Position numbers and translations under genes: made by a program. Under the pieces are notes generated by a model. That model saw only the letters and a list, made by a program, of their open reading frames with translations. It made no database searches and had not been told where the DNA came from. From contig CAVTME010000005.1 of assembly GCA_963735755.1 (NCBI GenBank), positions 263,036 through 327,035 of the forward strand: a DNA stretch of 64,000 bases, given 5' to 3'. Source of the stretch: an uncultured Bacteroidota bacterium. GTDB taxonomy: Bacteria > Bacteroidota > Bacteroidia > Bacteroidales > GCA-2748055. Below, piece after piece: positions 5,822-43,418 of this stretch; the stretch's first letter is position 1; each line of letters begins with the position of its first letter.

Positions 5822-8113
5822 CTACTTCATACCATCTATTTGTCTTTCAAGCTCAGAAACCTTCTGAATTAGTTCCTCAATGATGGCCTTCTGCTCCCTG
5901 CTCTCTTCGGTGAGTTCCTGGATGGCTTTTATGGCCACTACGGTCGCCGGGTGGCCATCCAGTTGCAGGAGTGGATCCTCATCTCCATCCAGACTTCCGC
6001 CCCCTTTCTGGACATATTGAGGAAAAACCTCCCTGTATTCTTGAGCGATGTAATTGTAGTAGGTCTTGTCCTTAACAGATGGGTTCATTTGCATCCAGTC
6101 CTCGGTATAATTGTAGCGGACTGGTCGCAGCCTGGCAATCAGGTCACAGGCATTTTCGATATCCGCCACGTTGGTTTTGATTCTTGCATCGGAGTTGGCC
6201 AGCCATTCCCCGGGGGTTGTTTTTGATACTTCACCAGCCACTTCAAGCGCGTTATCGGTGGCCATCATTCCTACTCCCAACTGGCGGTTAATTTGTACCC
6301 GGTTATTATAGAACTCACCATATATCAGTGCATTATCTGATGTGTTGTTGTCAATATCAATATATAATATCCCATCCCTGCTTTCATCCATACCAACCTT
6401 GTTACCAATAAAGACATTATCCTTTCCATTACAATTGAAACCGGAAAGGGTGCCGATAAAGACATTTGATTCTCCTGTATTATTATTAAAACCAGACCCG
6501 TCACCTATGAACACATTATTGCTTCCTGATGCATGATCCCACCCAGCATTCTGGCCAACAAAAACGTTTGTATTGCCGCTTACATTGCTTCGCCCAGCAT
6601 TCAGACCTACAAAAACATTTCCAAACGCATCTACATTCTGCTCACCTGAATAGGCTCCAATAAAGGTGTTGGCTTCTCCATTTACATTTCTACTACCGGA
6701 TCCATGTCCTAAAAATGTATTAACGGATCCATGTTCGTTGTTTTCCCCGGTTGAATTACCAACAAACACATTGGCTGATCCTCCCGAATTCCTGAGCCCG
6801 CTTAAATTTCCAATAAAAATATTTGCCCCCGAAGTATCTGATTCATATCCCGCCATATGTCCCAAAAATATATTGGTCCCTCCCCATACATTATTTGCCC
6901 CGGCGCCTGATCCAATAAATACATTCCATGAATCTAGCGCATGCGAACCTGCTTCATTGTCCAATGTAAACATTGCTATGACCGGATAAATTATTCTTGC
7001 CTGCGAAAATTCCCATGAATAAATTGTTGAATCCATCCACATTAGATTGTCCTGCATTGGGACCAATAAATGAATTAGATCCCCCACTGGTATTCTGTTG
7101 TCCGCTTCTCTCTCCGATGAAAATATTACCATTACCTGTGCTAGTGTTTGCTCCGCTCTCGTAACCAATAAAACTGTTATGTGAGCCTGAGGTGATAGCC
7201 TCTCCCGCCCTGTGACCAATAAAATAATTCTCTCTTGTGAGATTAAAGAGACTGGTTCCCTGATCCAGCTCTCCTCCAAACGTTGATTTCGTTTTAATTG
7301 ACAGGGCACCGGAATAGGAATCTACAGGTTGATCTGAAACCATGAGGAAGTTTGCACTGTCGGGTTTAAGCTCAAAATAGTTGTCAGTAGTGCCTTTGGT
7401 CTTGCGCGAATAACCACCCACAGCAAATCCGCCTTTCTTGCCTTTGGTGTTCTCTTCATCAAAATAGAGCCGGATGCTGTCTGGCGATACATGCATGTAC
7501 TCCTGGGTGATCCCCTTGTGCTTCCGGGAATAGCCTCCCACAGCAAATCCGCCTTTTTTGCCTTTGGCTTCCTCATCCAGCACATAAATCCTGGTTCCCT
7601 CTGGGTAAACTGCAAAGACAGTCTGGCCTTCTGCATTACGCACTTCAAACAGTGCTGAATCCACAGGGTGCCCGGCCTCCTCCTGCACCGTGAATTTCCT
7701 TGTGGGACTGGAGATGTTTCCAGAATAAAGTGAATAGGGAACTGAAATCATTTGCGATGTCCCAAGGTGGTCGTAGGAACTGCCTCCTGAAGGATCCACT
7801 TCTACCTTCAGGAAATGTAGATTCTCTCCCCACAAAATGTCTTCAAATGCTCCGCTGCTTACGGAGCCTTCACCGATGACCAGGTTGGCAAGTCCCACCG
7901 CATTGGTGGTCACTGTATGGGTCTCCACATACACTTGGGATCCATTGGCTGATCCCTCAAGGATGCTCATTTGAAAAGAAACATCCTGGTTGGAGATCAC
8001 AACATGTTGTGCATTACGCACCACTGCCTGATAGTTAAACTTCTGGGGACTTGCGCACTTGTGCAAAACACAATGCTGAGAATCATTGAGATAAGAAATG
8101 CTCTTTTTTTCAT
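5822..8113 (-). pseudogene. Tail-fibre-domain protein with C-terminal peptidase S74 intramolecular-chaperone domain; two frameshifts
   Basis: Signal peptide MKKRAFLISMILSIVFCTSAQ from ATG 8113, then a frame change at the C4 run 8045-8048 into ORF 6954..8066 (PQKFNYQAVVRN...). The N-x-F-I-G-x-x-AG repeats continue across a second frame change at about 6959 into ORF 5822..7309. The C-terminus SDARIKTNV...LRPVRYNY...QLDGHPATVVAIKAIQEL plus a coiled coil is the S74 autoproteolytic chaperone domain. Confidence 0.8.
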
Positions 8114-8261
8114 TACACTTGGGTTTTAGGAGTACAAACTCAAGTTACGAAAATTGTAGCTACAATGTCAAGTATTTAGCTGACTATTAATGATTTAATA
8201 GAGCATTCATCCTTCTCGTTTGTTATTCAAGGCAGTAGCTTGACTGCTTGAGCTTGAATCC

Positions 8262-10142
8262 TCAAGGAGTGGCTTTGTCTTTTCTGTCCAGGATCTTGTC
8301 CATCTGGTCCATGAGTTCGTTCATGGCTGCAATGGTGGAGGTGAACACTTCGGTCCCGGTCATATCCACACCGGCGATTTTAAGCAGATCAATGGGATCA
8401 TCAGATCCTCCGGCACTGATGAACTCGAGGTATCTTTCCCTGGCACCCTTTTCACCGTCCAGCAATCGTTTGGCCAGCGAGATGGAAGCTGTAAATGAAG
8501 TGCTGTACTGGTACACATAGTAGTTGTAGTAGAAATGTGGGATAAAGCCCCATTCCATATGAATGTAATCATCCACGTGGCATATTCCCTGGTCGTGACC
8601 ATAATACTTCCTGACAATCTCAAGATAGAGCTCTGAAAGGTATTTGCCTGTTAAGGGAATACCCTTTTCAACGGCTTCGTGAATCTTCAACTCATATTCG
8701 GCAAACTGAGTCTGGCGGAACAGGGTTCCTTTAAATCCATTGAGCCTGTCCATCAGGAGAGAAAGCTTGATGTCATCGTCAGTGATTTCATCGATGATGT
8801 AGTCAAACAGAAGCACTTCGTTGAAAGTGGATGCAACCTCTGCCACAAAGGTTGTGTACCTGGAAGTGGGGTAGGGTTGGGTCTTGTTGGAAAAATAGCT
8901 CTGCATGGTATGCCCCAATTCATGAGCCGTGGTACTCATGTCAGAATAGAGATCATTGTAGTTCAGTAGGATATAAGGATGCCCATCATAAAAAGCGCCG
9001 TTTGAATAGGCTCCTGAACTTTTCCCCTTGGAGGGATAGACATCAATCCACCGTTCATTAAATGCTTTCTCAACGGTTGCAATATATTCTTCGCCCAGGG
9101 GAGCCAGCGCTTTGAGCAGGATTTTCTGCGCTTCTTCGAAATCGTAAGTCAGATTCACATCTTTTACCACAGGGGCATAAAGATCCAGGTACTTCAATGT
9201 ATCCAGGCCCATCATTCGCTTCTTAATACCCAGGTAGCGGTGGAAAGGTGCCCAGGTTATCGTTTACTCCCTTTACCAGCGAATGATAAACATCTGTTGG
9301 AATATTGTTGGGGTACAATGCCCTCTCCAAGTGAAGAATTATAATTGTGCGCCTTGGACATGTACACATCCCTTTTAATACCCCCGTAAAGTAGTTCTCC
9401 CAGGGTGGCCTGGAAATTCTCAAGGTTTCCAAAAAAAGCTTCAAAAACCAGTGCCCTGTCCTCCCTGTTGGCTACTGCCCTGTATTTCCCAAATCCCGGG
9501 ACTGTCCAGAATTACACTTTCTCCGGTGCTGAGGGTTACTTCCGGATTTGGCATCTCTGCATTGGTGAAGGTACTGTATACCGACGAAGGGACTCCTGAA
9601 ACCATCCCTGACAGGGCGATAATTCTTCCTTCAGCTTCATCGGGGGTGTGTTGCTGCAGGCGAAACAGGTCGCTAAGTCCCTTTTCATAGGGTTTTAATA
9701 ATGGTTCTTCCTCTATGAATTCTTCAATGACTTCCCATTCAACAGACAGAATTTCCGGATCAATAAAAGAGGCTTTGGCTCCAAAACTGGAGAAGAGCTG
9801 CTGGACCTCCTGTCTCATCCCCAGGTAATGCATGTCGCGGGTGTCCAGGTCCGAGTGCATTCCGGCATAGATACTCAGCTTGATAGCCTCTTTGGAGATT
9901 TTTGTAGTGTACTCCATTGCTTTTAGCAACTGACCTGATGATTTGGTGAGGGTCCCTTTAAAGGATTCAACTTTGTCCAGCTCTTTGATCAATTGTTCCT
10001 TGGATTCTTGCCAGGCTTCATCGCTGGAATAGATATCAGTGAGATCCCACTTGTATTTATCCTCGATCTGATCCCTTTCAACCTGGGCCGGAAGGACAAA
10101 GAATAGGGTCAACATAGAAATGCAAAAGACAAGTTGTTTCAT
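8262..10142 (-). pseudogene. pepF: Oligoendopeptidase F (M3B), signal-peptide-bearing, frameshifted into 3 pieces
   Basis: Fragments are 9441..10142 (MKQLVFCISMLTLFFVLPAQ...), 9223..9444 and 8262..9215. The last carries the zinc motif TAHELGHTMQ. One junction reads ACCTTTCCACCGC where ACCTTTCACCGC would keep the frame. Confidence 0.8.
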
Positions 10143-10191
10143 TTTAATTCTGGTTTTAGTTTATAGTAAACGGTAAAATTTCATCCCTGAC

Positions 10192-10563
10192 TCAACTTTT
10201 TTCTAATAGTGCCATGGCAATGTATTCCCACTCTTCTTCCAGGGACAAATCTGGCATATTCTTCCCGGCGCTCCGGTACCAGTAGCCCGCATTTCCCCGA
10301 TCGCCCTCTTTTCTGTGCAGGTAGGCATGGACCCAGGATCCGTCCGGATTGTTTTCTCCCTGGGCAAGGTTGTGCGCGCTGTCCCAGTCTCCTGCGGCGT
10401 CCAGCAGAAGTGCCTGGAGAAGGGGAGGGATGTCCTCCGGAACTGATCCGGTGTCTTTCATATTCAGAAAATCTTCAAATGCTATCATGCGCGAAAGTAT
10501 TTCATGAAGGTGAAATTCCTCCTTTAAAGGTAAAAAAAAAGAAGGACCTTTTCCACCCTTCAA
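10192..10563 (-). CDS. Conserved hypothetical small protein
   Basis: Intact ORF of 123 aa; the real start may be the internal MIAFEDF. Motif WVHAYLHRKEGDRGNAGYWYRSAG. I cannot name the family. Confidence 0.45.
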   Translation of the reverse strand: MKGGKGPSFFLPLKEEFHLHEILSRMIAFEDFLNMKDTGSVPEDIPPLLQALLLDAAGDWDSAHNLAQGENNPDGSWVHAYLHRKEGDRGNAGYWYRSAGKNMPDLSLEEEWEYIAMALLEKS

Positions 10564-10663
10564 ATCATAGTTTCAGGTCCACATTTCCGGGTATAAAGGA
10601 TAGTTTTGATATTCATCAGATAGTTGGTCTCCTTTTTTTATATTTACACAAAATAATACACCC

Positions 10664-11836
10664 ATGATCGATTCTTTCCAATTCTCATCATTGCCGGAAA
10701 TCCGTTTCGGGAGGGGAAAGCGAAATGATTTGGCTGAAGCAGTTAAAATGCATGGAAAAAATGTGCTGCTGCTCACCGGATCGTCATCCATTCACAATTC
10801 CGGTCATGGCGATGAGATTATGTCCGGACTGAAAGAAGCTGGCCTCAATCTGTATCATGAAGTGATAGCCCATGAACCTTCTCCTTCCCTTGTGGATGAA
10901 ATTGCTGACAGGAACAGGGCTCATGAGATTGATGTGGTTGTGGCTGTGGGTGGCGGAAGCGTCATGGACGCAGGAAAGGCAATTTCGGCTATGATTCCGG
11001 TTGAAGGCAGCATCAGGGAGTATCTGGAAGGAATTGGGAACAGGGAACATCCAGGTCATAAAATTCCTTTTATCGCCATGCCCACAACATCAGGAACGGG
11101 AAGTGAGATGACAAAAAATGCTGTGATTTCAGAAGTGGGGGATCAGGGTTTTAAAAAGTCACTTCGCCACAATAATTTTATTCCCGAGATGGCCATTATT
11201 GATCCTGAAATGATGCTCTCATGCCCGACCCGCCTTACAGCCACTGCAGGGATGGATGCCTTTACACAACTCCTTGAATCATATGTGTCAAAGCAGGCCA
11301 ATCCAATGACTGATGCCTTGGCTTTGCAGGGGCTGAAGCAGATTAAAAAATACCTTTTAAGGGCCTTCCTTGAAGGTGAGAATAACATTGAGGCCAGATC
11401 AGGAATGGCGCTGGCAGCCATGTTTTCAGGTGATTACACTTGCTCATGCCGGTTTGGGACTCGTCCATGGATTTGCATCGCCCCTGGGTGGCTATTTCCA
11501 CATCCCCACGGGGTAGTTTGTGGTTCCCTGATGGCACCGGTCTTTGCCCATACCATTGATAACCTGATTGATCAGCCTGGATAATCCGGCCCTCCAAAAA
11601 CTGGTCATTGTAAGCAAGGTTTTCGCAGATTTCAAATATAAGAAAGAGCAGAATATTTGCAGGCATTTAAGGAGAAGCTGTTTCACATCACCAGCCTTCT
11701 GGAAGTCCCGGGATTTGCTGAATTTGGTTTCACAGAAGCATCTATACCGAAAATTATTGAAAACACTTCGCATAAATCCCATCCTGTACTACTGACTCCC
11801 AAACAGATGGAAGATTCTTTAAGAAGCAGGATTTAG
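10664..11836 (+). pseudogene. Iron-containing alcohol dehydrogenase, frameshifted near the C-terminus
   Basis: ORF 10664..11584 has GGGSVMDAGKAIS and the Fe-ADH core. The authentic C-terminus (GFTEASIPKIIENTSHKSHPVLLTPKQMEDSLRSRI*) is in another frame and ends at TAG 11834-11836. Confidence 0.75.
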
Positions 11837-11880
11837 ATTGAAGTGGATTGTATCCCCCAGTGATTTCACACTTTTCGGAT

Positions 11881-12312
11881 TCAAAGCAGAAGAAGTGTTC
11901 CAGGATGTGTTTCCTTTCGGTAATCTCCAGTCCGAGAACCAGGCAATTCCTGATCAAATTCCAGTGTAAGCCATACCTCGGGATTTGTAAAAGGATTTAG
12001 CGTGGGATCATAATTGATGGTGGTTCCATCCTTATAGAATTTGATAGGGTCGTCATCATGATCCTTGATATAGACGATCAGACTGTCATAGTAGAAAGAG
12101 AAATAGTCATAACCATCCAGACAATCACAGCTTATGGAATAAAACTCATTGGTAAAACCAGGCTGGATCCAGTCACCATCTGTAAATTCTGAAGAATAGG
12201 GTAGTGCATAAATGGAAATCCCGGTATCATTGTGGATTGAGATATAGGATAATTCCTCATCCATACATCCGTAAGAAAGAACAAGTATGCCTATAAATAA
12301 GAAGCCTTTCAT
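11881..12312 (-). CDS. Hypothetical lipoprotein
   Basis: 143 aa, with lipobox-like MKGFLFIGILVLSYGC. Its ATG directly abuts the TAA of the upstream MarC gene. Confidence 0.5.
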   Translation of the reverse strand: MKGFLFIGILVLSYGCMDEELSYISIHNDTGISIYALPYSSEFTDGDWIQPGFTNEFYSISCDCLDGYDYFSFYYDSLIVYIKDHDDDPIKFYKDGTTINYDPTLNPFTNPEVWLTLEFDQELPGSRTGDYRKETHPGTLLLL

Positions 12313-12909
12313 TTACATCCCTTTAGGTACCTCAATCCCTGTATTTGACAAAAATAACTTAATGGCAATGGCCAAGCAAGATGATGCCGAAGAATTTCCT
12401 CAGAATATGTAATCCATTGGGCCCGAGTATATCTTTCAAACAAGGTTGTGAGTCGGAGGACAAGATACACAATAATCATATTCAATGAAAGTGCGATAAG
12501 AATATTTATTGAATGATACTCAGCCCGTAGTGAAAGCAAGGTGGTGATGGAACCTGCTCCGGCAATCAGGGGAAAGGCAATGGGTACGATGGGCCCCACC
12601 ACCTCCATCCGAATCATGTTTAAAGAGTTGGATCCCAAGAACCATTTCAATTCCCATCAGGAACAGTATGACAGAACCGGCAATGGCAAATGAAGAGATA
12701 TCCACACCGAAAACGCCCAGCAAAGGTTCGCCGATAAAGAGAAACAGCAACATGATCGCGTAGGCCACAAGGGTGGTCTTTCCTGGATAAAGGGCTCCGG
12801 TTTTGGTTTTGACATCCAGGATGATCGGAATGGATCCAAGAATATCAATGATGGCAAACAGCACCATGAATGCTGCCAGGATTTCCATAATGTTGAGATG
12901 CATGATCAT
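12313..12909 (-). pseudogene. MarC family (UPF0056) membrane protein, at least 2 frameshifts
   Basis: Fragments are 12520..12909 (MEILAAFMVLFAIIDILGSIPIILD) and 12309..12650. The true C-terminus KDILGPNGLHILRKFFGIILLAIAIKLFLSNTGIEVPKGM* is in a third frame and ends at TAA 12313-12315. Confidence 0.7.
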
Positions 12910-13042
12910 TCAGTTTTATTCGGCCTGCAAATATCTGATTTTTTTCAGGATAAGAATCAGAAATCAGGCAATCCTTTTACTTTTCTTTTGTTAAACATAG
13001 ACATGGCAAACCTGAACGTTACTTTTGCATGGTGTTAGCCAC

Positions 13043-13753
13043 TTAATACTTGCCATGTTTACTGTTGTTCAGAATTTTGCGTGACAAGCCATGGGCTAAC
13101 GCGTTCCGCCGGATCTGCCAGAATATGAAATATCTTTCAATGCATTCCCGTTTCTTTCCGGTTCTTTGCGTAGTGGTTCCAAGCAGCATGTCAGTCACCA
13201 ACCATTCCCGGACTGATGCTTCCAATCCTGACTGGAGCGGTTTTATACTCCTTGATCAGGGACCTGGTAAAATAGCTTACAGCGTTTTTGGATGTTCCAT
13301 ATACACTCATACCATTATGGTCCTGCCGTCACTTCCAAATCCCTCCATATTATAGATGCTCCCTGTCCCTGTTTCAGCATCCCTTCGATGGCTACCTTGA
13401 TCCCAATACAGTACCTTTAATGTTGGTTTCGATTACATTCGAAAGCGATTGTTGCGTCCAGTTCATGGAAAGGATCTCCCGGGTGATTAATGCCCGCATT
13501 GTTGATCCAGATATCCACAGGTCCGGTTTGGATGCAAAAATCCATAGCGCCTGCAGATCCTTTCATTTGCGTACGTCACAAACAATCCCGGAAACCAGCT
13601 TGCTTCCACTTTCAGAACCGAGCAGGTCAATGGCCTTATTGAGAGCCTCCGCATTGCGGGAGCTTACAACCACCCTGCATCCCGTTTCAGGAACTCCAGA
13701 GCCAGGGCTCTGCCGATCCCGCGCGAAGATCCTGTAATTACAATGTTTTTCAA
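13043..13753 (-). pseudogene. Short-chain dehydrogenase/reductase (SDR), heavily frameshifted
   Basis: KNIVITGSSRGIGRALALEF (TGxxxGIG), NNAGI, YGTSKNAV (YxxxK) and a C-terminal piece at 13043..13225 are spread over all three minus frames. Confidence 0.7.
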
Positions 13754-13766
13754 TTCGTATCAAGTT

Positions 13767-14363
13767 CTATCCTTTGGTTTTTATGGTACATCCAATGGCC
13801 TTGGTAGTGGCAGGATCTGGGTTTCTCTCCCGATCGACAGTCGGCAATGGCATCTTCCAGGTAAGTTTGCACGACAGCAGCTGCATCCATGGCATTGTCA
13901 TCGATGGCGCCAATATAAGCACTTTAAATTTTTCCCTTTTTTTTCGAGCAGAAAAATATGTGGTGTCCGGGTGGCTCCATAGGCCTTATATACTTCCTGG
14001 GTCTCATCTTTCAGATAGGGAAAGGGATACTTCTTTCTCTAGCCCGCGCTTTCATCTTTTCAAAAGTATCATCCGGAGATATTTCATCATCATTGGGATT
14101 GATGGCTACCACCGGAAAACCCTGTTCAGCATATTTTTGATGCAGTTGAATGATCCGCTGTTCATAGGCTTTTGCAAAGGGGCAGGGATTGCATGTAAAT
14201 ACAAGAATGACTCCCTTCTGATCATTGTAGTCGGATAGTGAAACCTCCGTTCCGTCCACGTTTATCAGTGTGAATTCCTCGGCCGTATCCCCTGGTTTTA
14301 AGCCTGCATGGATCATCAAAATTCCTGCAAGGGCCAGACCTGTGTTAATAGTACTTTTTTCAT
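13767..14363 (-). pseudogene. Thioredoxin-fold (redoxin/AhpC-TSA-like) protein, frameshifted
   Basis: The core is ORF 14011..14319 (VILVFTCNPCPFAKAY, a CxxC motif). The N-terminal signal MKK(S)TINTGLALAGIL is out of frame because of an A6 run (A7 would restore it). The C-terminus ...AIGCTIKTKG* is in another frame, with its stop at 13767-13769. Confidence 0.7.
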
Positions 14364-14364
14364 A

Positions 14365-14842
14365 TCAATTCATTATTTGTTTTACATGTGATCGTAATTC
14401 TTCTCTGGTGAGCTCCTGTTCCAGGAAGATCCGCTGATCTTTCTTGTAGATCAGTGTGGCGGGGATAGCCCCCGACCAGGAAGGATCTACCTGGTCAATC
14501 CAGTCATTATAGTTGAGGTCTGTCATCAGCAATACAGGTGCTGTGATCTCTTTTTCTGTCAGAAACGAGCTCCCTTTTGCTGCCTGGTTTGGAAAATCCA
14601 GGCTCACCAGAATACATTCACCGGATTTTGACGTATAGACGGTGTAACTCCTCAAAATAGCTGATCTCTTTGACACAGGGAGAACACCATGTAGCCCAGA
14701 AATTCACCACATAGGTGGTATCATTTTTCATTCCGGTTATTAGCAAAAGTTGCTCTGTGTCAATTTCAGAGTATGACTGGCCGTCTACCCGGACGGAGGT
14801 CATGATAAATAGCAGGAGTAAAACAGCAATGTTTTTCATCAT
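14365..14842 (-). pseudogene. TlpA-family thiol:disulfide oxidoreductase, one frameshift
   Basis: Fragments are 14618..14842 (signal peptide, then NFWATWCSPCVKE) and 14365..14676. Its stop TGA is 1 nt from the ATG of the next thioredoxin-fold gene. Confidence 0.75.
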
Positions 14843-14863
14843 ATATTAAACAGATAAGGACAG

Positions 14864-14903
14864 TCAATTGTTTGTTCTCTGAAGCAGTCGTTTAAACAAT
14901 TGA
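14864..14903. promoter_or_regulatory. Perfect 10-bp inverted repeat TCAATTGTTT-N20-AAACAATTGA in a divergent promoter gap
   Basis: Read directly at 14864-14873 and 14894-14903, between the TlpA start (14842, minus strand) and the start of the thioredoxin-fold gene (14952, plus strand). Confidence 0.35.
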
Positions 14904-14951
14904 TGGTTTTATTTGTAGTATTATTTTACTTTAACCTTTAACCTTTCTATT

Positions 14952-15527
14952 ATGGGATTTACATTAGATATTGGCAATCTGCACCTGACTTCAAACTTCC
15001 TGCAACAGATGGCAACACCTATTCACTATCTGATTTCAAGGAAGATTTCTGGTCATATTCTTTACCTGTAATCATTGTCCATATGTAATTGGTTCGGATG
15101 AAGTAACCAGGGCTTCGGCAGAGAAATTTGCAGAGCAAGGGAGTTAAGATTTATAGGGATTAACTCCAACAGTGCGAATACCTATCAATCAGACGATTTT
15201 CCGCATATGGTAAAACGGATGAATGAGCACAAGTTTCCCTGGATATACCTTTATGATGAGAGCCAGGAAGTGGCAAGGCCTACGGGGCCTTGCGCACACC
15301 TCATTTCTATGTGTTTGACAGTGAACGAAACTAGTTTACACAGGCAGGGCAGTAGATCAACCCAGAGATCATCCCGGATCACTGTGAATGATCTGGACAG
15401 GGCTTTGGAAGAATTTCATCGGGAAAACAGGTCTCTGTACCCGGTCACAAATCCCATTGGATGCAATGTTAAATGGGAAGGAAAGGAGCACACTGGATGC
15501 CGGCTGATGCCTGCGATCTTGGTCTGA
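14952..15527 (+). pseudogene. Thioredoxin-fold protein (paralog of 13767..14363), multiple frameshifts
   Basis: MGFTLDIGN..., [10 protein letters not shown] (CxxC) and ORF 15207..15527 ([14 protein letters not shown]...NPIGCNVKW) are spread over three frames. Confidence 0.65.
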
Positions 15528-16044
15528 TCAGGCAGAGTAGACCTTCCGGATTTGCTTTTTTCCCAGGTGGATCCTGCTTTTTACTGTTCCGATGGGAATA
15601 TCCATATGTTTGGCGATCTCTTTGTATGAGTAGCCTGATAAGAGCATTGAATGGGTTTTCATATACACCTGGGAGCAAGTTGACCATTTCCCGTAGTTCT
15701 TTCTTCAGTAGCATTTCATCAGGAAGAGATTTCCACGGTCTTCATTTGATGTCGGAGTATACATTTAATTCGTCTGTATCATAGACCAGTTGCCGGTAGT
15801 GACTGCTTCTCAGGTAGTTAATATAGGTATTCTTAAGAATGGTATAAAGCCAGGCCCTGATGTGATCATTGTTGTGCAACCGTTTCTTATTTTTCAGGGC
15901 TTTATAACTGGTTTCCTGAACAAGGTCCAGGGCATCTTCCCTGTCCTCGGTAAGTTGCAGGGCATAATAATACAGATTATCCTGCATCTGGACCAGGTCC
16001 GATGCAAAATGATCCCTGTAATCGCTATATGCATGGCCTTTCAT
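15528..16044 (-). pseudogene. ECF-type RNA polymerase sigma-70 factor, frameshifted
   Basis: Region 2 lies in ORF 15742..16044 (DLVQETSYKALKN...WLYTILKNTYINYLR). Region 4, GYSYKEIAKHMDIPIGTVKSRIHLGKKQIRKVYSA*, is in another frame with its stop at 15528-15530. Confidence 0.75.
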
Positions 16045-16145
16045 AAGGGCAATGTGATTTTCTAGTGTAATTTACCAAATAATCAGATACAGTTCAAGTG
16101 GTTATCAACATGTTTTCATTCAGCCGTCCCATCGTTTCAAGTCAA

Positions 16146-17087
16146 TTAGCGTGCCTTCTGGTAAATCTCAATATTACGTGCGATCTTTTCCACAAGGAGT
16201 TCCCGGGATTCTTTTGAGGCCCAGGCCATATGCGGAGTAATCAGGATTTTCTCCTTGTCATATAATTTCAACATGGGATTGTTAGCGTTGATGGGCTCAT
16301 GCTCCATGACATCTAATGCCAGCCGCTCCAATGAGATTGTCGTTCAGTGCCCTGGCCAGGTCCTTTTCATTAATAATACCGCCCCTTCCAAGGTTCAGCA
16401 GGATGGCACATGGCCTCATCAATTTGATCTTTTCATAGGTAATCAGATCCCTGGTCTGGTTATTCAGTGGTGCATGAATGGATACCACATCCGAGCTTTT
16501 CAGCAGATCGTCCAGATCAAACCGTTTATAACTGATGTGGTTGTTCCTTCCGGAGGTGGAATAAAATACCACATCCATACCGAATGATTCAGCAATACGT
16601 GCCACCTGCCTGCCAATGGTCCCAAGTCCGATAATTCCCATCCGCTTCCCTTTTAACTCCCAGAAAGGTTCATTGTGGTGTGTAAACGAATACTTCTTGA
16701 GTAGGCCCCGCTTTTTACATAACTGTCATAGTAATAGGGCTTGTTGACCAGGTACAGCAGCATGGTAAAGGTGAGCTGGGCTACGGAATCGGTGGAATAG
16801 CCCGCCACATTTTTCACTTCAATGCCATTGTTTCCGGCATAGTTCAGATCCACATTGTTGATTCCTGTGGCAGCCACACATATCAGTTTAAGATCAGGCA
16901 GTTGTTTCATGATATCAGCTGTCATTTTCACCTTGTTTACAATCACGATCTCTTTCCCTGTGCATCTTTCAACCACCTGGTCGGGATTGGTGGTCTCATG
17001 GATTTCGAGATTGCCCCGTTTGGAGAGCAATTTTATGTTATCCACTTTACCGATGGTTTCCGAATCGAGAAATACAATATGATCCAT
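16146..17087 (-). pseudogene. D-isomer-specific 2-hydroxyacid dehydrogenase (glycerate dehydrogenase-like), 2 frameshifts
   Basis: Fragments are 16653..17087, 16297..16641 (GIIGLGTIGRQVARIAESFGM, the NAD fold) and 16146..16331 (ITPHMAWAS). Confidence 0.8.
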
Positions 17088-17217
17088 GCTCCTGTAGAAT
17101 TATGTGAATAGTAAACGAAACTATTACTGGTAAACACTCCCCAGGATAATTTGGTTCATTGGTTAAGGATTGTTAAATGCTTTCGCAGGAAGAACAAAAT
17201 TAGATACATTTAAACAT

Positions 17218-18009: not shown

Positions 18010-18047
18010 AAAGGTGAAAGTAGAAAGATCTTTTACCTTTCACCTTT
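18010..18047. terminator. Hairpin between convergent genes (AAAGGTGAAAG-N16-CTTTCACCTTT)
   Basis: An 11-bp perfect inverted repeat, read directly. A/T-rich flanks on both sides. Confidence 0.5.
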
Positions 18048-19605: not shown

Positions 19606-19630
19606 TTTATAATCTTTTACCTTTATAATT

Positions 19631-21332: not shown

Positions 21333-21333
21333 T

Positions 21334-30584: not shown

Positions 30585-30667
30585 AAATTATGCCAAGAAG
30601 CTTATGGAAGGATTAGCGGAAGTATGAGACAAATGCTTATCTTGTTGTAAACCCAAATTTTACGGTT

Positions 30668-31744: not shown

Positions 31745-32333
31745 CAGCCTCCATGGGAATGTCTTTCGCTCCGGAAAGATCATTGAGGGCATTGATCAAC
31801 CTGATTTTCTTGAAACGGTCCAGATCCTTTTTCAGAATCCGGGCTTCCTTTAGCATGCCCTGGTCAAGCAGAGAGGCCCGCATGGTGCCTGCCAGAAGGG
31901 GGGTGTCTGGCGTGATCCAGTCCCACCCGTCCCAGAACACCACATTGGCAAAATAACTATCGGTAACACAGCCAGCTTTCACAATCAGGATATCGTCACA
32001 GGTCCCCCGCTGTTCATAGAGCGCTGTCAGTGCGGAGCGGTCAGCAAATTTATGCTCATAGGAGATGGTTTCCGATTCAAGCACCTTCAGGCTGTGAATC
32101 TCCAATGTATGGTAAGGTTCATATTCGATCCGCTCCACATCTTCTCCGTAAAGGACCCTGCATTTAAACAATCCTCTGTCCAATCCGCCGGGAATGGCAA
32201 TGACCTGTTCCAGCCTTGGGTGTTCTCCTAAACCCAGCACCTTTTCCCGGGATCGGTTGAATCTACGCTGGTGGTAGGCGAGATTCATGATCTCCCCGTT
32301 CAATAATTTAATGGTTTCAATAAATTGGGACAT
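31734..32333 (-). CDS. pabC: Aminotransferase class IV (aminodeoxychorismate lyase-like)
   Basis: 199 aa, intact. It overlaps the 3' end of pabB by 17 nt. The assignment rests on synteny and size, so the symbol is tentative. Confidence 0.6.
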   Translation of the reverse strand: MSQFIETIKLLNGEIMNLAYHQRRFNRSREKVLGLGEHPRLEQVIAIPGGLDRGLFKCRVLYGEDVERIEYEPYHTLEIHSLKVLESETISYEHKFADRSALTALYEQRGTCDDILIVKAGCVTDSYFANVVFWDGWDWITPDTPLLAGTMRASLLDQGMLKEARILKKDLDRFKKIRLINALNDLSGAKDIPMEAVSG

Positions 32334-33308
32334 AGACTTTGTTTAGCATCTCTTCATATTCGAGTTCACACCGACTCTGGAAGGTAATCCCGCCTCCGCT
32401 TTTGAAAACCATGTGATCTTCTTCCTTCTCCATATATCTGATGGCCACGGCCGAATCGAGGTTTTGTCCATCCCAGTATCCAAATACACCGGTATAGTAA
32501 CCGCGCTCATACTGTTCAGCTTCATGGATGATATCCAGTGTCTTTGTTTTGGGAGCTCCGCAGATTGATCCGGCGGGCAGGAGACGAAAGATCATCTCTC
32601 CCATCCTGTTTTCAAATCCTTCGGGCAGGTTTCCTGAGATCTCGGAACTCATCTGAAGCAATTCACCATGGTGGGTCCTACCCTGTCAATGTATTTGAAT
32701 CTTTTAACCCGGACATTTGTGGCAATGGTGCTCAGATCATTTCTGATCAGATCCACGATGGTGTTGTGCTCGGCATCCTCCTTCAGATCCGAACTAAGTT
32801 TTGCATGGGCACCGGGTATGGAGGCATCGATGGTGCCTTTCATTGGATTTGAAGTAACCGTATTCCCCTCGATCCTGATGAAGCGTTCCGGACTGAACAC
32901 CACAAGTTCATCCTTCAGGAACAGCTTAAAGGGAGCATGGCTGCGTGTGAAGATATTCTCCAGGCTGCAGTTGATATGAATCTTCGTAGGGAAGGTCAGG
33001 TTGAGCAAGAAGGAATTGCCGTAGAGGATCTGTTTGGTGACCAGGTTAAAGGCATGGCGGTATCGCTCCTTTTCAATAGGAAACTTGTTCATGGAAATGG
33101 GAGCTGAATTTGTCCCTTTCAGACGATGATTGGAAAATCCGGGCATCTCCAGATGGAATCCATGCCGGTCTGATCCGGAAGATTTAAACACGCAGTTTTG
33201 CTCACCATTAAAACTGATCAGGAAAACAAAGGGTGTCCTGTCGGAACCGTATTGGTTTATCAGGTGGATTGTATCTTCCCTGCTGTACCTGTGCCTTGTA
33301 TCTACCAT
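32317..33308 (-). pseudogene. pabB: Aminodeoxychorismate synthase component I (short form), one frameshift
   Basis: Fragment 32649..33308 has SNPMKGTIDAS and DAEHNTIVDLIRNDLS. Fragment 32317..32661 has GSICGAPKTKT and YTGVFGY. Confidence 0.75.
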
Positions 33309-33311
33309 CCC

Positions 33312-35373
33312 TTAATTGGCCTTTTGATCCCACTCCAGTGCGATCCTGGCAATGTTGGTAGCGTGGGTGTCAATGGTGCTCAGTAGGGCCAGGATCTCCA
33401 CATGTGTCTTGCTGCTTTCAATGGACTCCTTCATGCCATCCAGGATCCTTGCGTAATGCAATTTCTCAAGATCCTGGGAAAGAGAACGATACTCTTTATG
33501 CTTGGCCTTCATTCGTGCAGCTTTCTGAAGGTTGGTCTCATCAAAAACAACCAGGGCCCTTTTCAATTGCTTCTCCACTTTGCTGTGATAGGTCCTGATT
33601 TCCTCTTTTCCTTTCTCTGAAAAATCATAGCCCATGGCCACCCATTTCTCAGCCCGGTTGGCCAGGCCACCGGAAAGCACATCAGCAATTTTCTCAAATT
33701 CATTCATCGAATAGAGCATCTGGAAGGATTCGTTGACCCCCTCAGCATTAACCATCTCCCTGTTAATTTTCAGCAGATACGCTTTGATGGAATCCCTGAG
33801 AAAATTAACTTCCTGTTCATGGGTATAGACCGCATTCAAAGAGGAAGGATCTTTTTCCATGAATGGTTGTAGGATCAAGGAAAACATTGTACGCACGATC
33901 ATGCCCATGCGGATGATCTCCTGTTTGGCCAGGTTCAAGGCCAGGGCAGGTGTAGACATGAGCCCCATATCCAGGTAAAGTGTTGAAAATCCGGCAGTTT
34001 CCTGTTCCTTTGCTTTTCCCATCAACCAGTCCACCAGGCGTGCCACCTGCGGAGTGACAGGTAAAACCACCAACATCAGGACCATGTTGATAAGGGTATG
34101 GGAATTGGCGATCAGCCGGGCCAGTGAGGCATCAGGCGAAAAATCTCTGACCAAAGTCGCCCAGTCTGACTGTCCAACCTGCAAAAATCAGAACGCTGAC
34201 GAGTTTAATGATCAGGAAGGCCAGGGCCACTTTCTTTGCTTCCCGGTCCGATTTCATGCTTGAAAGCAAGGCAGTAACTGTTGTTCCTATGTTGGAACCC
34301 AGGAGCAGCGGGATGGAAGCATCCAGTGAAAGCAAGACCCTGGGAGGCAAGAACGATCATGATCCCCACAAAGGCACTGCTGGACTGGATCAGGGCGGTA
34401 AACAGGGCTCCCACCAGGATGCCGAAAACGGGATTTTCCAGCTTTAGCAAAAGGTCAATAAAGGGGGTCCATTCCCGCAAGGGGGCCATGGCATTGGACA
34501 TGATTTGCATTCCGAAGAAGAGCACTCCAAAGCCAAACAAGGAAGTTCCCACAGATTTCCATTGCTCCTTATTGGAAAAAGCCTGAAGGAAAAAACCAAT
34601 GGCAACCAGAAGCAAACTGTATTCTGTGATCTTGAAGGCGATCATTTGTGCGGTGATGGTGGTGCCGATGGCAGCACCAAGCAATACCGGGATGGTTTGC
34701 CTGAACTGGAGCAGCCGGGCATTCACAAAGCTTACCAGCATCACCGATGTGGCGCTGCTGCTCTGGATGATGGTGGTAACCAGTGTTCCCACACCTACAC
34801 CAACGATCCTGTTTCGGGTAACACTTCCCAGGATGGACCGCATCCTTTCACCTGCCGATTGCTGCATCCCTTCACTCATGGTATGCATGCCGAACAGGAA
34901 CAGCCCAAGGCCTCCCAGCAGTCCGATGAGCAACATATAGACCCAGTTCTTCTTGTTGGCACTGGCTTTGAAGATGACCTGGTTGTTGGGAAATCCTTCA
35001 CTGATTCTGCAGGATACCTGGTATCTGCCAGGTTTTGAGCCCAGGGTAAGGCTTGAACCTGCTCTTCCAGAGGAATCGGTAGTGACCAGAGTGGAGCTCA
35101 ATTGGCTGTCATCGGAACTGCCCGGTGCAGAGATCACTGTAAATGCGACCATCACTCCCGGCACCGGACTATCGTTTTCGTCACATAACCCTGACCATGA
35201 TGGAGTCCGGGAGTACGCTGTCCGCAGATCCCCGATCTGGTGCCCAGTTCGTTCCCCAGGAGTGTCAGGTGCATATTTCTCTCCTCTGGAAATTTCAGTA
35301 TGCCAGTGGAATCCTGCCCCATGCTTTGCAGAGCAAGAAAAAACAGGATGATGATGGTGATGGCCCTGTTCAT
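33312..35373 (-). pseudogene. Na/Pi cotransporter family protein with PhoU-like C-terminus and an N-terminal signal + Ig-like extension; at least 2 frameshifts
   Basis: Fragments are 35152..35526 (start MNRAITIIILFFLALQSMGQ at 35373), 34205..35164 (LGGLGLFLFGMHTMSEGMQ, IQSSSATSVM), 34132..34350 and 33312..34184. Confidence 0.75.
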
Positions 35374-35440
35374 GACCTTAAATATACAAATCAAATGCAT
35401 AGGGTTTTGTACCTTAGTTGGCAAACATAAAAACAGCTTC

Positions 35441-37007
35441 ATGAGGAAATCATGTTTAATCGGCATCCTTATACTGATGTCCCTGCTTTCAATCCATGCC
35501 CAGGAGATGGGATTGAAAGAGAGCAAGGTGTTCAGTAACCTGGGAGATTATGTGCGGCAGGCGCAATTTTCACCCTACAGGAATTATTTTGCATTTACCA
35601 TTGGTAACAATACCCTCAGGGTGTATGACCGCGACTGGGAAAAAGTTTTCGAACACCAGGGGAATCCAAAAGCAGTTGGCGGTGTTTTTGCATTTTCTCC
35701 CGATGAAAAATACCTGGCTTACGGCCGCTATAAGGGATTTAATGATATTGCGATTATCAGGTTGGAGGATTTGAAGGTGGTGCAGGTTTTGAGCCGGCAT
35801 ACGGACTACATCAACCACCTGGAATTCAGCCATGAGGGTGATTTGCTGGTCTCCTCCTCTTCCGATGAGCGTGCCATCATATGGAAGCTTGAGGATGAGA
35901 CATTTACACTGAGCCAGGTGCTTGAAGGTTTTGAGTCTTCCCTGAGCCAATCCACTTTCAGTCCGGATGACCGTTTCCTGGTTACCGGTGATTCCCGAGG
36001 ACATGTACTGATTCTTGAGCGGGGAGGGGATGATTACACCGAGTTCCAACGCTTTCAATACAGGAGGCATGGCATAGAGTCGGTTGTTTTTAATCCCACT
36101 GCCATATGAGTTTGTTACAGGATCCCTTTACGGAATTAGAAGGTATCGGCTGAATGAGAAGCAATTTGTATTGTCCGATTCACTGGAGGAGAAAGCCAGT
36201 GTGAGTTATCCCATGCAGTTTAGTCCGGATGGATTTCACCTGGCAGCTGGAAATTATCAGACGGCGGTGATTTTCCATGTGGACAGCGATTCCATTTTTC
36301 CGGAGGAGGTTGTTTACAGGCATATGGATGTTGTGTTTGGGGCAAACTTTTCTGACGATGGGCAGTTTTTTGTGACCTTCAGCGGAGATCAGAGTCTGAT
36401 CGTCTGGGAAATAGACCATATTCAGCCTTCCTCAAAATCGATCCTGGTCTCCAGGCTGGGTGCCGGGCTTACCCTGGCTCAGCGCCGGGCACTCAAACCT
36501 GCCACCGTCAACAGAATCCTGATGGGCGTACCCTATGTCCTTGTTCTGCCCAAGGATGAATTTGAGACCACCGCGGAATATGAAGCGAGAAAAGAGCAGG
36601 TAGCCGACCTATCATTGAACCTGCTTCAGAAGGAGATGGAGAAGCAGTATGAGGTAAAGAGCAGGCAGGGCCATGTAGAGATCCCGCTCCAGGGAATCGT
36701 TGGATACAACGCGGATCTTCAAATCTATAAGGTCCGGTTCATGGAGACCGAAGCCGGTGTGGCCATTCCCATTGAAGCGGCCAGGGATTTTAAAGAACAA
36801 TGGCAGCGATCCCATATCAGGGCTGAGCGTGTTCAGGTGAAAGGAGGGAAGAGTTACCGTTACAGCAACTACGAGCTCTATAATCCTTCAGATAAGAAAT
36901 ACTACCCGGTAACACCCCTGGAGAATCCATTCCATCAGGAAGAGGAGAAGGCCATGGTTCGAACCGAAATCATAAAGAGTCGAAACAGCCGGCATGGATT
37001 CAATTGA
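35441..37007 (+). pseudogene. Secreted WD40-repeat protein with an uncharacterised C-terminal domain; frameshift at about 36104
   Basis: Starts at ATG 35441 (MRKSCLIGILILMSLLSIHAQE). WD40-like blades include FSPDEKYLAYG, HTDYINHLEFSHEGDLLVSSSSDERAIIWKL, FSPDDRFLVTGDSRGHVLIL and FSDDGQFFVTFSGDQSLIVWEI. ORFs 35240..36109 and 36084..37007 join if the single A at 36104 is removed. Confidence 0.65.
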
Positions 37008-37743
37008 CGGCAAAGGAAAAACCTATGCACTGATGTTTGCATCCAATGTGTACGATTACTATTCCGACCTGGTCAATCCGGTACTGGATGCCCAGACCAT
37101 TGCCATGGAACTGGGTGAGTCCTATGGAGTAATTTCAGAGGTGGTACTGAATCCCACCCTTGCTGAGACAGCCACTGTGCTCAGGGAATATGCTTCCATG
37201 AATTATGCCCCCGAGGATAACCTGCTGGTTTTTTTTGCCGGTCATGGGGTCTATGATGAAGTATTTCGTGAAGGATATGTGATTTCGAGGGATTCAAGGA
37301 CCGACGACCTGGGAAAAACATCCTACCTGTCCCATTCCAACCTCCGGACCATGATCAACAACATCGATTGCCCGCATATCTTCCTGGTCATGGATGTCTG
37401 TTTCGGAGGCACCTTTGATCCCCACCTGACAGCCACCCACCGGGGCACTCCGGCTGTCTACGCCGATATCAGCACCAGCGAATTTGTGGAGCGGAAATTG
37501 AAATACAAAACGAGGCTCTATCTGACCTCAGGAGGAAAGGAGTATGTGCCCGATGGCAGGCCTGGATTTCATTCACCTTTTGCCAGGCGCTTCATTGAAT
37601 CGCTCAGGTATTACGGGGGCAACGATGGTGTGCTGACCACCTCGGAGATCCTTCAGTTTGTGGAGAAGGTCAATCCCCAGCCCAGGTTTGGTGAGTTTGG
37701 GGACAATGAGCCGGGCAGCGATTTTATCCTGGTGGTCAGGTAG
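36994..37743 (+). CDS. Caspase-family (peptidase C14) protein
   Basis: 249 aa with the catalytic dyad contexts LVFFAGHGV (His) and FLVMDVCFGG (Cys). The ATG overlaps the WD40 ORF stop by 14 nt. This is either a coupled separate gene or the frameshifted C-terminus of the WD40 protein. Confidence 0.75.
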   Translation: MDSIDGKGKTYALMFASNVYDYYSDLVNPVLDAQTIAMELGESYGVISEVVLNPTLAETATVLREYASMNYAPEDNLLVFFAGHGVYDEVFREGYVISRDSRTDDLGKTSYLSHSNLRTMINNIDCPHIFLVMDVCFGGTFDPHLTATHRGTPAVYADISTSEFVERKLKYKTRLYLTSGGKEYVPDGRPGFHSPFARRFIESLRYYGGNDGVLTTSEILQFVEKVNPQPRFGEFGDNEPGSDFILVVR

Positions 37744-38140
37744 CCTCTGGTCCTGTCGGAGGATCTTTCCTGGTAACCAGCGGATGTCTGGACCCATCCG
37801 GAAAGGTAAATTTACCAGAAAGTTCATTTATCTCCTCATTGAATGTCCCTTCAAATGAGGTTTCCTTAGCCTGAATGTAGAATGTCAGCTTGTTCTCCTC
37901 CACTGCGATCCTGGAGAGCGCATCATCCTGGATTTGTTCGGAACCGTTGTACATCATAATGTAGCCTGTGAATCCTGAATCATCGCTCCATTCTAATTGT
38001 ATGACTGTTTTGAAATCATCCATGAACATACCTGTCCAGTTCCCTGAATAGCTTTGCTGTCCCAGGGACTGTTGACTACCAAGAAGGATAAAAAAAGAAG
38101 CATACAGGAAAATTTTTTCTATGTGAAGTGGTGTTTTCAT
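37736..38140 (-). CDS. Hypothetical secreted protein
   Basis: The probable start MKTPLHIEKIFLYASFFILLGSQQSLGQ is at 38140 and overlaps the MotA-like stop as ATGA. Confidence 0.45.
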   Translation of the reverse strand: MKTPLHIEKIFLYASFFILLGSQQSLGQQSYSGNWTGMFMDDFKTVIQLEWSDDSGFTGYIMMYNGSEQIQDDALSRIAVEENKLTFYIQAKETSFEGTFNEEINELSGKFTFPDGSRHPLVTRKDPPTGPEAT

Positions 38141-38529
38141 GATTCCAGCTTTTTGTGATGCCATAGGTCCAGAATGAACCATAGAAGAATGGAAAGCAAA
38201 TAGATAAATATGCCATAAAGCGTAGTGTACATGGAGATTTTCAATCCGCCATATACCATTGCCGGGGAGATGTCTCCGGCGCGTTCAATGGCACCGAATG
38301 CCATCATTAATCCGATCAGTTGTCCCAGGATCCCCGTAATCATGGTAAACAGTCCTGCTGATTTCAGATAGGTAAGCCGGTGCCTGAAGTGGGTCATTTT
38401 CCGGGCTCTCCCGGAGATAATGTAAACTGCAAATGCAACGGCCATAGCCAGGAGCAGCACGAGCAATGTGGTGAGAATACCCATGAAAAGTGGGCCTCCC
38501 ACATGAAATAGATTATTCAGTGTGTCCAT
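38137..38529 (-). CDS. MotA/TolQ/ExbB proton-channel family protein (short, 130 aa)
   Basis: Three TM segments and the family motif region GLLGTV-like ITGILGQLIGLMMAF...GDISPAMVYGGLKISMYTTLYG. Confidence 0.65.
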   Translation of the reverse strand: MDTLNNLFHVGGPLFMGILTTLLVLLLAMAVAFAVYIISGRARKMTHFRHRLTYLKSAGLFTMITGILGQLIGLMMAFGAIERAGDISPAMVYGGLKISMYTTLYGIFIYLLSILLWFILDLWHHKKLES

Positions 38530-38682
38530 AATAAGATGTTTTTAAGTTTAACATTTGATAACATTACAAAGCTAGGCAGGACGGGCTATACAGCGCAAGG
38601 TCGAATCCGCTTCGAAACCTGCTTTCTGTCGATAAAGGGTGTTTTGGATCACATTTTTTGCGATATTTAGTCTGCCAAGTCA

Positions 38683-39438
38683 ATGAAAACCTACCAGCAC
38701 ATCATCTTCTGGATTGTGGTTCACGGATCACTCACCCTGCTATTCGGAAAGTGGTTTGAGGATTACATTGAAGCTTTCTATTATGTGTCCCTGCTGCTAC
38801 CGGTGGTGATTGGTACTTCCTACTTCTTTAATTACTTCCTGGTACCCCTTTATCTCTTTCAGAAAAAGTTCTTTCTATTTGGTCTCTATTCCTTTTACAT
38901 GCTCGTCGTCTCTCTCTGTCTTGAACTGGTAGCCAGCGTTGTTGCCATGTTGCTGATCATCCAGTTTGGGGTCAACCGGACCGGCCCCCTGGTTACCGAT
39001 GTCTTTACACTGGCCTTGATCCTGTATTTCATTGTGCTTTTCAAATCATTTATCCTCCTGATCAAGCACTACTTCGTAGACCAGGGAGCCATCAGCCGTC
39101 TGGAGGAGCAGCAGTCCAAACTGGAGAAGGGATTCATCACCGTACGTTCCAAGCGGAAAACATCACGCATTGAATATGATGAACTGCTTTACATAGAGAG
39201 TATGGCTGACTATATCACGATCCACCGGGATGATGGGGGAGAGGTGGTATCCAAGGAGAAAATAAGTCACATGGAGCATCGTTTGCCGGAAAGTTTTCTC
39301 AGGATTCACAGGTCTTTTATTGTGAATGCATCCAAGATCACTTCTTTTTCACGTGAAGAGGTTGTATTGGGAGAGATTGAACTGCCCGTGAGCCGGACCT
39401 ACAGGAGTGAAGTGATCAGCAAACTGAAAAAGAAATAG
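38683..39438 (+). CDS. Membrane-anchored LytTR-domain DNA-binding protein
   Basis: 251 aa with four N-terminal TM segments. The C-terminal LytTR domain reads YIESMADYITIHRDDGG...FLRIHRSFIVNASKI. Confidence 0.8.
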   Translation: MKTYQHIIFWIVVHGSLTLLFGKWFEDYIEAFYYVSLLLPVVIGTSYFFNYFLVPLYLFQKKFFLFGLYSFYMLVVSLCLELVASVVAMLLIIQFGVNRTGPLVTDVFTLALILYFIVLFKSFILLIKHYFVDQGAISRLEEQQSKLEKGFITVRSKRKTSRIEYDELLYIESMADYITIHRDDGGEVVSKEKISHMEHRLPESFLRIHRSFIVNASKITSFSREEVVLGEIELPVSRTYRSEVISKLKKK

Positions 39439-39929: not shown

Positions 39930-39946
39930 AATGTTAGGTTTGCTGT

Positions 39947-42853: not shown

Positions 42854-42952
42854 TTTGCAGGGGGATCTATTTTATCAACTTCAGGTCTGGGGATTATGTA
42901 ACCACTCGAAAGATAATCAAGCTGTGATTTTATCCCCCCGGTTACTCCATTG

Positions 42953-43046
42953 CATCGCTATGTCGTGAGCTTGTCAGCTACGCTGCCTCGGTTATTCGCA
43001 TACTACGTATGCTCATGAGCTCGTCAGCTACGCTGCCTCGGTTCAC
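42953..43046 (-). repeat. Dispersed copy of the tRNA-derived hairpin-module repeat seen at 5.4-5.8 kb
   Basis: The reverse complement reads GAACCGAGGCAGCGTAGCTGACGAGCTCATGAGCATACGTAGTATGCGAATAACCGAGGCAGCGTAGCTGACAAGCTCACGACATAGCGATG. The array reads GAACCGAGACAACGTAGTTGTCGAGCTCATGAGCATACGGAGTGTGCGAATAA. It contains a 27-nt internal direct repeat (42967-42993 and 43017-43043). Confidence 0.8.
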
Positions 43047-43222
43047 GCTGGGGCTTCTATTAAGCCTGCTGATCCCTGCAAGTATTCAGAGTCAGTGGGA
43101 AATCGTGAATAAAGGTGGATACATTGGTCAGATAGAATTTCTAAATGATCAGGTAGGTTGTGAAAGCTTTCCCAAAAACATCATAAATTAAAACAAGAGT
43201 TAATGCTTAAATTTGGGGAACT

Positions 43223-43418
43223 ATGAAAAAGTCAAAATTCAACGAGAGTAATATCATTAGTATTCTAAAACAGCAACAAGCTGGACTACCTGTATCCGAC
43301 ATTTGTCGCGAACACGGGATAAGCCAGGCCACCTTAATTTAACAGGAAGAGCAAGTATGGCGGAATGAACGTTTCCAATCTCAAGCGCATGAAAGAGCTT
43401 GATCAGGAGACTGTTTAA
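43223..43418 (+). mobile_element. IS3-family transposase orfA remnant (HTH part only; stop + frameshift, no orfB)
   Basis: MKKSKFNESNIISILKQQQAGLPVSDICREHGISQATLI*, then in the +1 frame FNRKSKYGGMNVSNLKRMKELDQETV*. This is the typical IS3/IS911 OrfA N-terminus. Confidence 0.7.

Follow-up and report, generated by a model that had tools for sequence, protein, structure and literature searches.

In the window (the whole 64,000-nt stretch that was analysed, from the draft genome of an uncultured sediment Bacteroidales), about 71 one-base frame changes interrupt 22 genes between positions 6956 and 38670. Such events occur in patches throughout the genome and disrupt indispensable single-copy genes. 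Judged from sequence comparison, the frame changes are very probably artefacts of assembly or consensus calling and not mutations of the organism. The cause was probably thin read support, and the technology probably a long-read platform with insertion-biased, context-independent errors.

Frame changes in the window

Window DNA was aligned using our own protein-to-DNA aligner with +1 and -1 steps permitted; the reference proteins were the products of intact ORFs from G017, the closest relative (contigs C127, C110, C23 and C52; 71–95% amino-acid identity). From 6956 to 38670, 20 genes showed 51 frame changes in all; the 23 genes at 39.4–64 kb showed none. The short-chain dehydrogenase (SDR) and the redoxin at 14952–15520 lack a G017 counterpart and were aligned to their orthologues in G018, a second genome of the same genus; the window total given above combines both references. 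In the left flank (0.3–5.1 kb), proteins of G018 were matched at full length, each in a single HSP, and no frame change was present. A looser run with G018 proteins gave a few apparent events outside the block, all of them in over-extended parts of reference ORFs that precede the true start codons. The features are as follows.

6956..38670, stretch holding all detected frame changes (about 71, of which 44 insert and 27 delete a single base)
12000..16100, where events are densest (33 within 4 kb, about 8 per kb); MarC, SDR, three redoxins and the ECF sigma factor lie here
5822..8113, minus strand, tail-fibre-like protein with Peptidase_S74 chaperone domain; 2 events (insertion at 6956, deletion at 8050 in a run of four)
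8265..10142, minus strand, M3 oligoendopeptidase F-like protein; 3 insertions (9246, 9331, 9500)
10664..11833, plus strand, iron-containing alcohol dehydrogenase; 4 events (11432, 11502, 11579, 11649)
11822..12312, minus strand, hypothetical 162-aa protein; 2 insertions (11876, 11934)
12316..12903, minus strand, MarC-family membrane protein; 3 insertions (12376, 12428, 12591)
12960..13747, minus strand, SDR; about 12 events in 790 nt against the 271-aa G018 orthologue, the worst case
13770..14842, minus strand, two AhpC/TSA-redoxin genes; 5 events (13770–14363) and 1 event (14368–14842)
14952..15520, plus strand, redoxin (thioredoxin fold); about 8 events in 570 nt against the G018 orthologue
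15531..16044, minus strand, ECF sigma-70 factor; 4 events
16149..17093, minus strand, D-2-hydroxyacid dehydrogenase; 2 events
17170..17999, plus strand, hypothetical 277-aa protein; 3 events and a short out-of-frame stretch around 17421
18049..19605, minus strand, Gfo/Idh/MocA oxidoreductase, 519 aa; intact, 91% identical to G017
19634..23742, minus strand, DoxX (1 event), HATPase_c_2 protein (2 events) and MacB/FtsX-type permease (21337–23742, 8 events)
23787..26929, minus strand, alpha/beta hydrolase (1 event, 23979) and PQQ-like beta-propeller protein (1 event, 25909)
26991..27671, plus strand, DUF6962 protein; intact
27691..28449, minus strand, 255-aa ORF, called FGE by the initial annotation's label only; intact
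28532..30581, plus strand, DUF5916/CBM9 protein; 1 insertion (29219)
30668..32333, C_GCAxxG protein, LMW-phosphatase-like protein and class IV aminotransferase (pabC-like); all intact
32320..35400, minus strand, chorismate-binding enzyme (pabB-like; 1 event, 32681) and Na/Pi cotransporter with PhoU domain (4 insertions)
35441..37740, plus strand, WD40 plus caspase-domain protein (766–783 aa in relatives); 2 insertions (36104, 36981)
38604..39432, plus strand, LytTR-domain protein; may carry the last event, at 38670 close to the N-terminus (weakest call)

The initial annotation had described a frameshifted block at 5822–43418 between intact flanks, with about 40 frame changes in at least 22 genes. 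The block, its intact flanks and the number of genes were all recovered, but the part that bears events is narrower and the number of changes was too low. The SDR and the thioredoxin-fold gene were heavily hit, as had been stated; both families were assigned via intact orthologues, and Pfam searches with the raw ORF fragments of these two genes gave no hits because the pieces are excessively fragmented. Junctions that it had named at 6959 (inserted C), 36104 (inserted A), 29218, 8045–8048 (run of four, lacking one base) and 14355 (run of six, lacking one base) were found again within a few bases, and the one at 9228 agreed approximately, matching the three events of the oligoendopeptidase gene. 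Among genes described as untouched, the Gfo/Idh/MocA, FGE-like, pabC-like, C_GCAxxG and LMW phosphatase genes proved to be so, the exception being the possible event in the LytTR gene.

Frameshift density, whose formal measurement had been proposed, was non-uniform in the window (50 events in 27.4 kb aligned versus 0 in 19.2 kb; P = 2.9e-12 under a uniform rate) and across contig C5. By histogram, event density climbs gradually to its maximum at 12–16 kb and then tails off, a profile that would be expected of a consensus resting on very few long reads. GC content was rejected as a cause, the error peak having 43–44% GC and the clean stretch at 42–46 kb 41–43%. Against an artefact stands the juxtaposition of 0 events in 25 kb with up to 8 per kb adjoining, which would require a strong local difference in read support or polishing.

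Patches of frame changes across the genome

The assembly comprises 23 contigs and 4.73 Mb with a marker completeness of 78.9%; 15 of 18 genomes of the same genus score 91–100%, though most are far more fragmented. Its median ORF length is 250 aa (340 aa in G018) and it carries 946 ORFs per Mb (779 in G018). A complete 23S rRNA gene lies within a 275-kb contig.

Frame changes were counted genome-wide by conservative tblastn chaining of orthologue-like genes, of which 119 of 396 were frameshifted (189 events in 452 kb). A looser genome-wide aligner run with proteins of the more distant G018 gave 493 events, with over-calls at over-extended reference N-termini; the genome figure given here is therefore the tblastn count, and the window figure is the one based on G017. 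A reciprocal control, in which ORFs of the window's genome were compared with G018 DNA, was uninformative because an ORF left open by a close pair of shifts moves the apparent error to the other side, and it was replaced by the clean stretches of the window's genome as internal control.

Error patches of ~2–87 kb were found on C5, C6 and C7, between stretches of 40–80 kb with no calls or isolated ones, and the same kind of patch was present on every well-surveyed contig. Clustering on C5 was strong (runs test, z = -7.2), and the clean stretches hold almost no calls, C5:180–222 kb having no more than isolated single ones in over 40 kb. The unevenness noted in the initial annotation is thus real, but it does not speak against sequencing error as had been argued, because the entire assembly alternates between clean and error-rich stretches.

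The genes broken in these patches include rpoB, a single-copy gene split into two frames at C11:55246–55253, secA (2–5 changes) and gyrB (1 change), and no second close copy of secA or gyrB was found in the genome. Also frame-broken are aprB, relA/spoT, leuA, leuB, gnd and the formate-THF ligase gene. Because many such patches also break rpoB, secA and gyrB, the block in the window can almost certainly be put down to sequencing or assembly error that was never corrected.

The same observations make it very unlikely that a dispensable or redundant region gathered inactivating indels under relaxed selection, which the initial annotation had put forward as the pseudogenisation of an accessory region or of a redundant segmental duplicate. 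Such an account would suit the concentration of changes in one block with intact flanks and the fact that most block genes (redoxins, SDR, hydrolases, transporters) are not obviously essential, but it is largely refuted already by the broken essential genes. Moreover, the block genes form a syntenic core conserved in G017, G018 and the other same-genus relatives sampled. Nor was a duplicate found: blastn of the block against its own genome returned the self-match only, and the best paralogues of block genes are 25–49% identical, with the one exception of a 70% identical paralogue of the tail-fibre-like gene on C18; no other frameshifted gene has a paralogue above 50% identity. Independent sequence was also sought. 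An exact look-up of the intact 519-aa Gfo/Idh/MocA protein in public sequence gave no match, and a homology search with the same protein gave a best identity of 93% on a 2.4-kb contig, too distant to be the same strain.

Lesion spectrum and rival readings

All lesions in the window are one-base steps, ~62% of them insertions, and genome-wide the step directions were 87 for +1 and 44 for -1. Insertions near a run of at least 4 amounted to 13.6%, against 20.6% of random positions, and are thus depleted there and not enriched; deletions near runs of at least 4 were marginally enriched only. The ~71 window lesions include neither a clear nonsense codon nor any large deletion or IS insertion; of three apparent in-frame stops, two arose where alignments ran past start codons on the upstream side and the third from a short out-of-frame stretch. 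Divergence from orthologues is no greater in frameshifted genes than in intact ones (amino-acid identity 0.74 versus 0.71), and the SDR carries its 12 indels without additional amino-acid divergence. Replication slippage yields homopolymer-biased indels in bacteria. The missing homopolymer bias therefore argues against pseudogenisation, as do the narrow range of lesions and the undiverged SDR.

In host-restricted, pseudogene-rich genomes such as those of Mycobacterium leprae and Sodalis, a large fraction of genes is likewise interrupted by frameshifts. There, however, essential genes are spared, nonsense codons, deletions and IS insertions are among the lesions, and the pseudogenes are dispersed, whereas here rpoB, secA and gyrB are broken, by one-base indels only, clustered in patches the size of reads. 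It is highly improbable that clustered one-base indels are real in some other way, for example as tracts of error-prone repair or recombination in a non-viable or relic sediment DNA population; were they so, the patches would mark a natural process of localised mutagenesis.

The probability is close to nil that the genes are functional as written because biological recoding (programmed ribosomal frameshifting or transcript editing) repairs their frames. Its one attraction is that the fragments read through seamlessly once single bases are added or removed, and in programmed frameshifting (prfB, dnaX, IS3-family transposases) two overlapping frames do jointly encode one protein. A programmed site occurs singly, is conserved in relatives and has a slippery sequence; here the frames of relatives are uninterrupted, and no slippery motif or shared context was found when the window junctions were compared. 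Steps of +1 and -1 are both present, as many as 12 events fall in one gene of 790 nt, and the events are limited to patches while similar genes next door need none.

Probable source of the frame changes and use of the assembly

The reading to which the evidence points is one the initial annotation had also listed, a segment of the assembly that locally had low coverage or was left unpolished. This metagenome-assembled draft is highly contiguous and was most likely assembled from long single-molecule reads. Where the consensus rested on one or a few reads, or went without polishing, residual one-base insertions and deletions would stay, and neighbouring stretches with good read support would come out clean. 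The block in the window would be one thinly supported stretch, with support lowest at ~12–16 kb and recovering gradually on both sides.

An artefact of another cause is less likely: a hybrid assembly in which accurate short-read contigs were bridged by raw long-read consensus, or failed short-read polishing, the short reads being missing or derived from a divergent co-occurring strain. The evidence set out for thin read support would serve this account equally, and the very clean stretches fit better with source sequence of two qualities than with a continuum. Against it, the window's density profile is graded and not step-like, and patches of 2–25 kb fit read lengths better than gap fills, although neither point is decisive.

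In long-read assemblies, low completeness despite contiguity, rRNA operons inside long contigs and clean sequence where support is good are seen, as here. Typical nanopore errors are homopolymer deletions. The errors in this genome differ in being strongly patchy, insertion-biased and without homopolymer preference, a profile that would fit a low-pass PacBio-type consensus or unpolished bridges better than typical nanopore data. Gene-fragmenting indels are a known problem of long-read assemblies, with one-base indels splitting genes into adjacent ORFs in the same way (PMC12007338).

The finding is mainly a quality warning. Since roughly a third of the assembly's genes are split by consensus errors, calls of pseudogenes, gene loss, odd or truncated domain architectures or 'missing' pathways from this genome need a prior check against relatives, and this applies equally to other findings in the window and its neighbourhood. 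The patch structure also marks the trustworthy stretches, which lie at about 60–146, 180–222, 237–255, 301–323 and 343–426 kb on C5 and at 0.3–5.1 and 39.4–64 kb in the window.

Frame changes in the window

ORF products of G017, the closest same-genus relative, were aligned to the window with a protein-to-DNA dynamic-programming aligner that was written for this analysis, permits 2-nt and 4-nt codon steps and was validated on a synthetic case. The syntenic DNA of G017 is 79–83% identical at the nucleotide level, and its contig C127 spans window 8.3–48.9 kb. The alignment yielded 51 one-base steps in 20 genes, all within window 6956–38670, and none in 23 genes at 39.4–64 kb. Two block genes without a counterpart in G017 were aligned to orthologues from G018, a same-genus relative compared through 1.2 Mb of DNA from its 10-contig, 100%-complete genome. 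In total the block holds about 71 events. The left flank (0.3–5.1 kb) aligned full length in single HSPs without a break; a less stringent run also called events beyond the block, but these lay upstream of true start codons and were rejected as method artefacts.

Block genes with frame changes
12960–13747, minus strand: SDR, family confirmed; ~12 steps vs the G018 orthologue
14952–15520, plus strand: redoxin, family confirmed; ~8 steps vs the G018 orthologue
35441–37740: WD40 repeats with C-terminal caspase (Peptidase_C14); two frame changes; conserved (766–783 aa, 83–86% identity to G017 and G018)

Event density is graded: counts per 2 kb are 1, 4 and 6 over window 6–12 kb, peak at 18 and 15 over 12–16 kb and continue at 5, 1, 8, 3 and 1 past 16 kb, with sparse events as far as 38.7 kb. 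This distribution rules out a uniform rate (P about 3e-12; 50 events in 27.4 kb vs 0 in 19.2 kb). The initial annotation, which proposed such a frameshift-aware alignment, had placed an unevenly frameshifted block amid intact flanks at 5822–43418 with about 40 frame changes; alignment to G017 and G018 confirms the block and its patchy distribution, within narrower bounds and with more events. The junctions read earlier at 6959, 8045–8048, 14355, 29218 and 36104 were reproduced in the G017 alignment. The block genes earlier listed as intact were likewise confirmed, and so, FGE excepted, were the gene family assignments. The junction at 9228 corresponds to three nearby events.

Directly left of the block, the intergenic segment 5276–5760 matches short repeats that occur in many dispersed copies in G017 (C123, C80 and others) and also in other relatives. 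A small island at ~41970–45840, missing from G017:C127 (33318 to 33374), adjoins tRNA-Arg(ACG) at 45888–45962, bears a Gfo/Idh/MocA gene and contains no frame changes.

Lesion type in the block

Pseudogenisation of an accessory region or of a redundant segmental duplicate was one of two explanations offered initially, the other being assembly error. The accessory reading is contradicted by gene order conserved with both G017 and G018 and by homologous segments in other same-genus genomes sampled. As to duplication, blastn of the block against the whole genome returned only the block itself, and paralogues of its genes in G000 (the window's own genome) share 25–49% identity, save one tail-fibre-like paralogue at 70%.

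When bacterial pseudogenes decay naturally, they acquire nonsense codons, additional substitutions, deletions of larger size and indels biased towards slippage sites; none of these was seen here. All window lesions are single-base (44 insertions, 27 deletions), and an independent tblastn diagonal analysis gave 87 +1 vs 44 -1 changes genome-wide. The lesions are without homopolymer association: the share found close to a run of four or more bases is 13.6% for insertions and 25.9% for deletions, vs 20.6% for random positions. No clear nonsense mutation accompanies the frame changes in the alignments, where the three in-frame stops lie upstream of real start codons (two) or in a short out-of-frame stretch (one). 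Divergence of the broken genes from their orthologues does not exceed that of intact genes.

Broken genes across the genome and their probable cause

The G000 assembly (4.73 Mb, 23 contigs, 47% G+C), in which the window occupies C5:263036–327035, has a marker completeness of 78.9%, low in spite of its high contiguity; of 18 genomes from the same genus, the majority split into hundreds of contigs, 15 reach 91–100%. Relatives found through one intact window protein are uncultured Bacteroidales/Bacteroidota MAGs, a few titles indicating marine sediment, seep or vent; an independent same-strain assembly was not found in the collections searched. For ORFs of at least 100 aa, G000 has a median of 250 aa and 946 per Mb, vs 340 aa and 779 per Mb in G018.

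When 935 ORF products of G018:C3 were searched against the whole G000 assembly (tblastn), 396 had orthologue-like matches, 119 of them split across frames (189 events in 452 kb). Patches on contig C5 lie at about 35–58, 172–179, 224–237, 274–300 (this block), 336–343 and 426–513 kb, separated by 40–80 kb stretches with zero events or isolated, mostly N-terminal calls (runs test on gene order, z = -7.2). On this contig cysD is broken, and cysN and a 1229-aa protein at 207–211 kb are intact. C6 and C7 are similarly patchy, and patches outside the window are mostly 2–25 kb long.

Among the broken genes, which were named through their intact counterparts in G018, are SecA (equivalog, 1855 bits; 2–5 frame changes), GyrB (1 frame change), AprB, RelA/SpoT, LeuA, LeuB, 6-phosphogluconate dehydrogenase, formate-THF ligase and CysD; tblastn found no second close copy of secA, gyrB or aprB in G000. 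In a profile search of the genome, rpoB (split at 55246–55253 within G000:C11:53499–57294) was recovered in two adjoining fragments, each in its own frame, beside an intact rpoC (1448 aa). Broken essential genes are incompatible with a living cell, so those events at least do not reflect the organism itself, and the window events share their character. These genes (rpoB, secA, gyrB) and the genome-wide patches favour assembly error, which is almost certainly the cause of the block.

High contiguity and a complete 23S rRNA gene (G000:C8:52423–55305) inside a 275-kb contig indicate a long-read assembly, and the patch lengths are on the scale of long reads. The errors that classically remain in PacBio-type single-molecule reads are insertion-biased, context-independent indels, as seen in G000; homopolymer deletions are instead typical of nanopore reads. 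Most simply, the consensus within patches would rest on one or very few reads; alternatively, unpolished bridges in a hybrid assembly may have left the errors. Frameshifts created by long-read error rates, which pseudogenise genes, are a documented problem (PMC12007338). The block is real as written in the sequence, yet no biological finding, and it calls for caution with every other annotation from G000.

The apr/qmo cluster outside the window

An aprB-aprA-qmoA-qmoB-qmoC cluster occurs in the genus, at G000:C5:~228.7–235.6 kb and G018:C3:866.5–873.3 kb (L012:6535–13304). AprA, AprB and QmoC score above equivalog model cut-offs; two HdrA-like proteins, scoring below every HdrA cut-off, are called QmoA/QmoB by position. 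No dsrA was found in G000, G017 or G018, and Apr/Qmo without Dsr in Bacteroidales may be a subject of interest.
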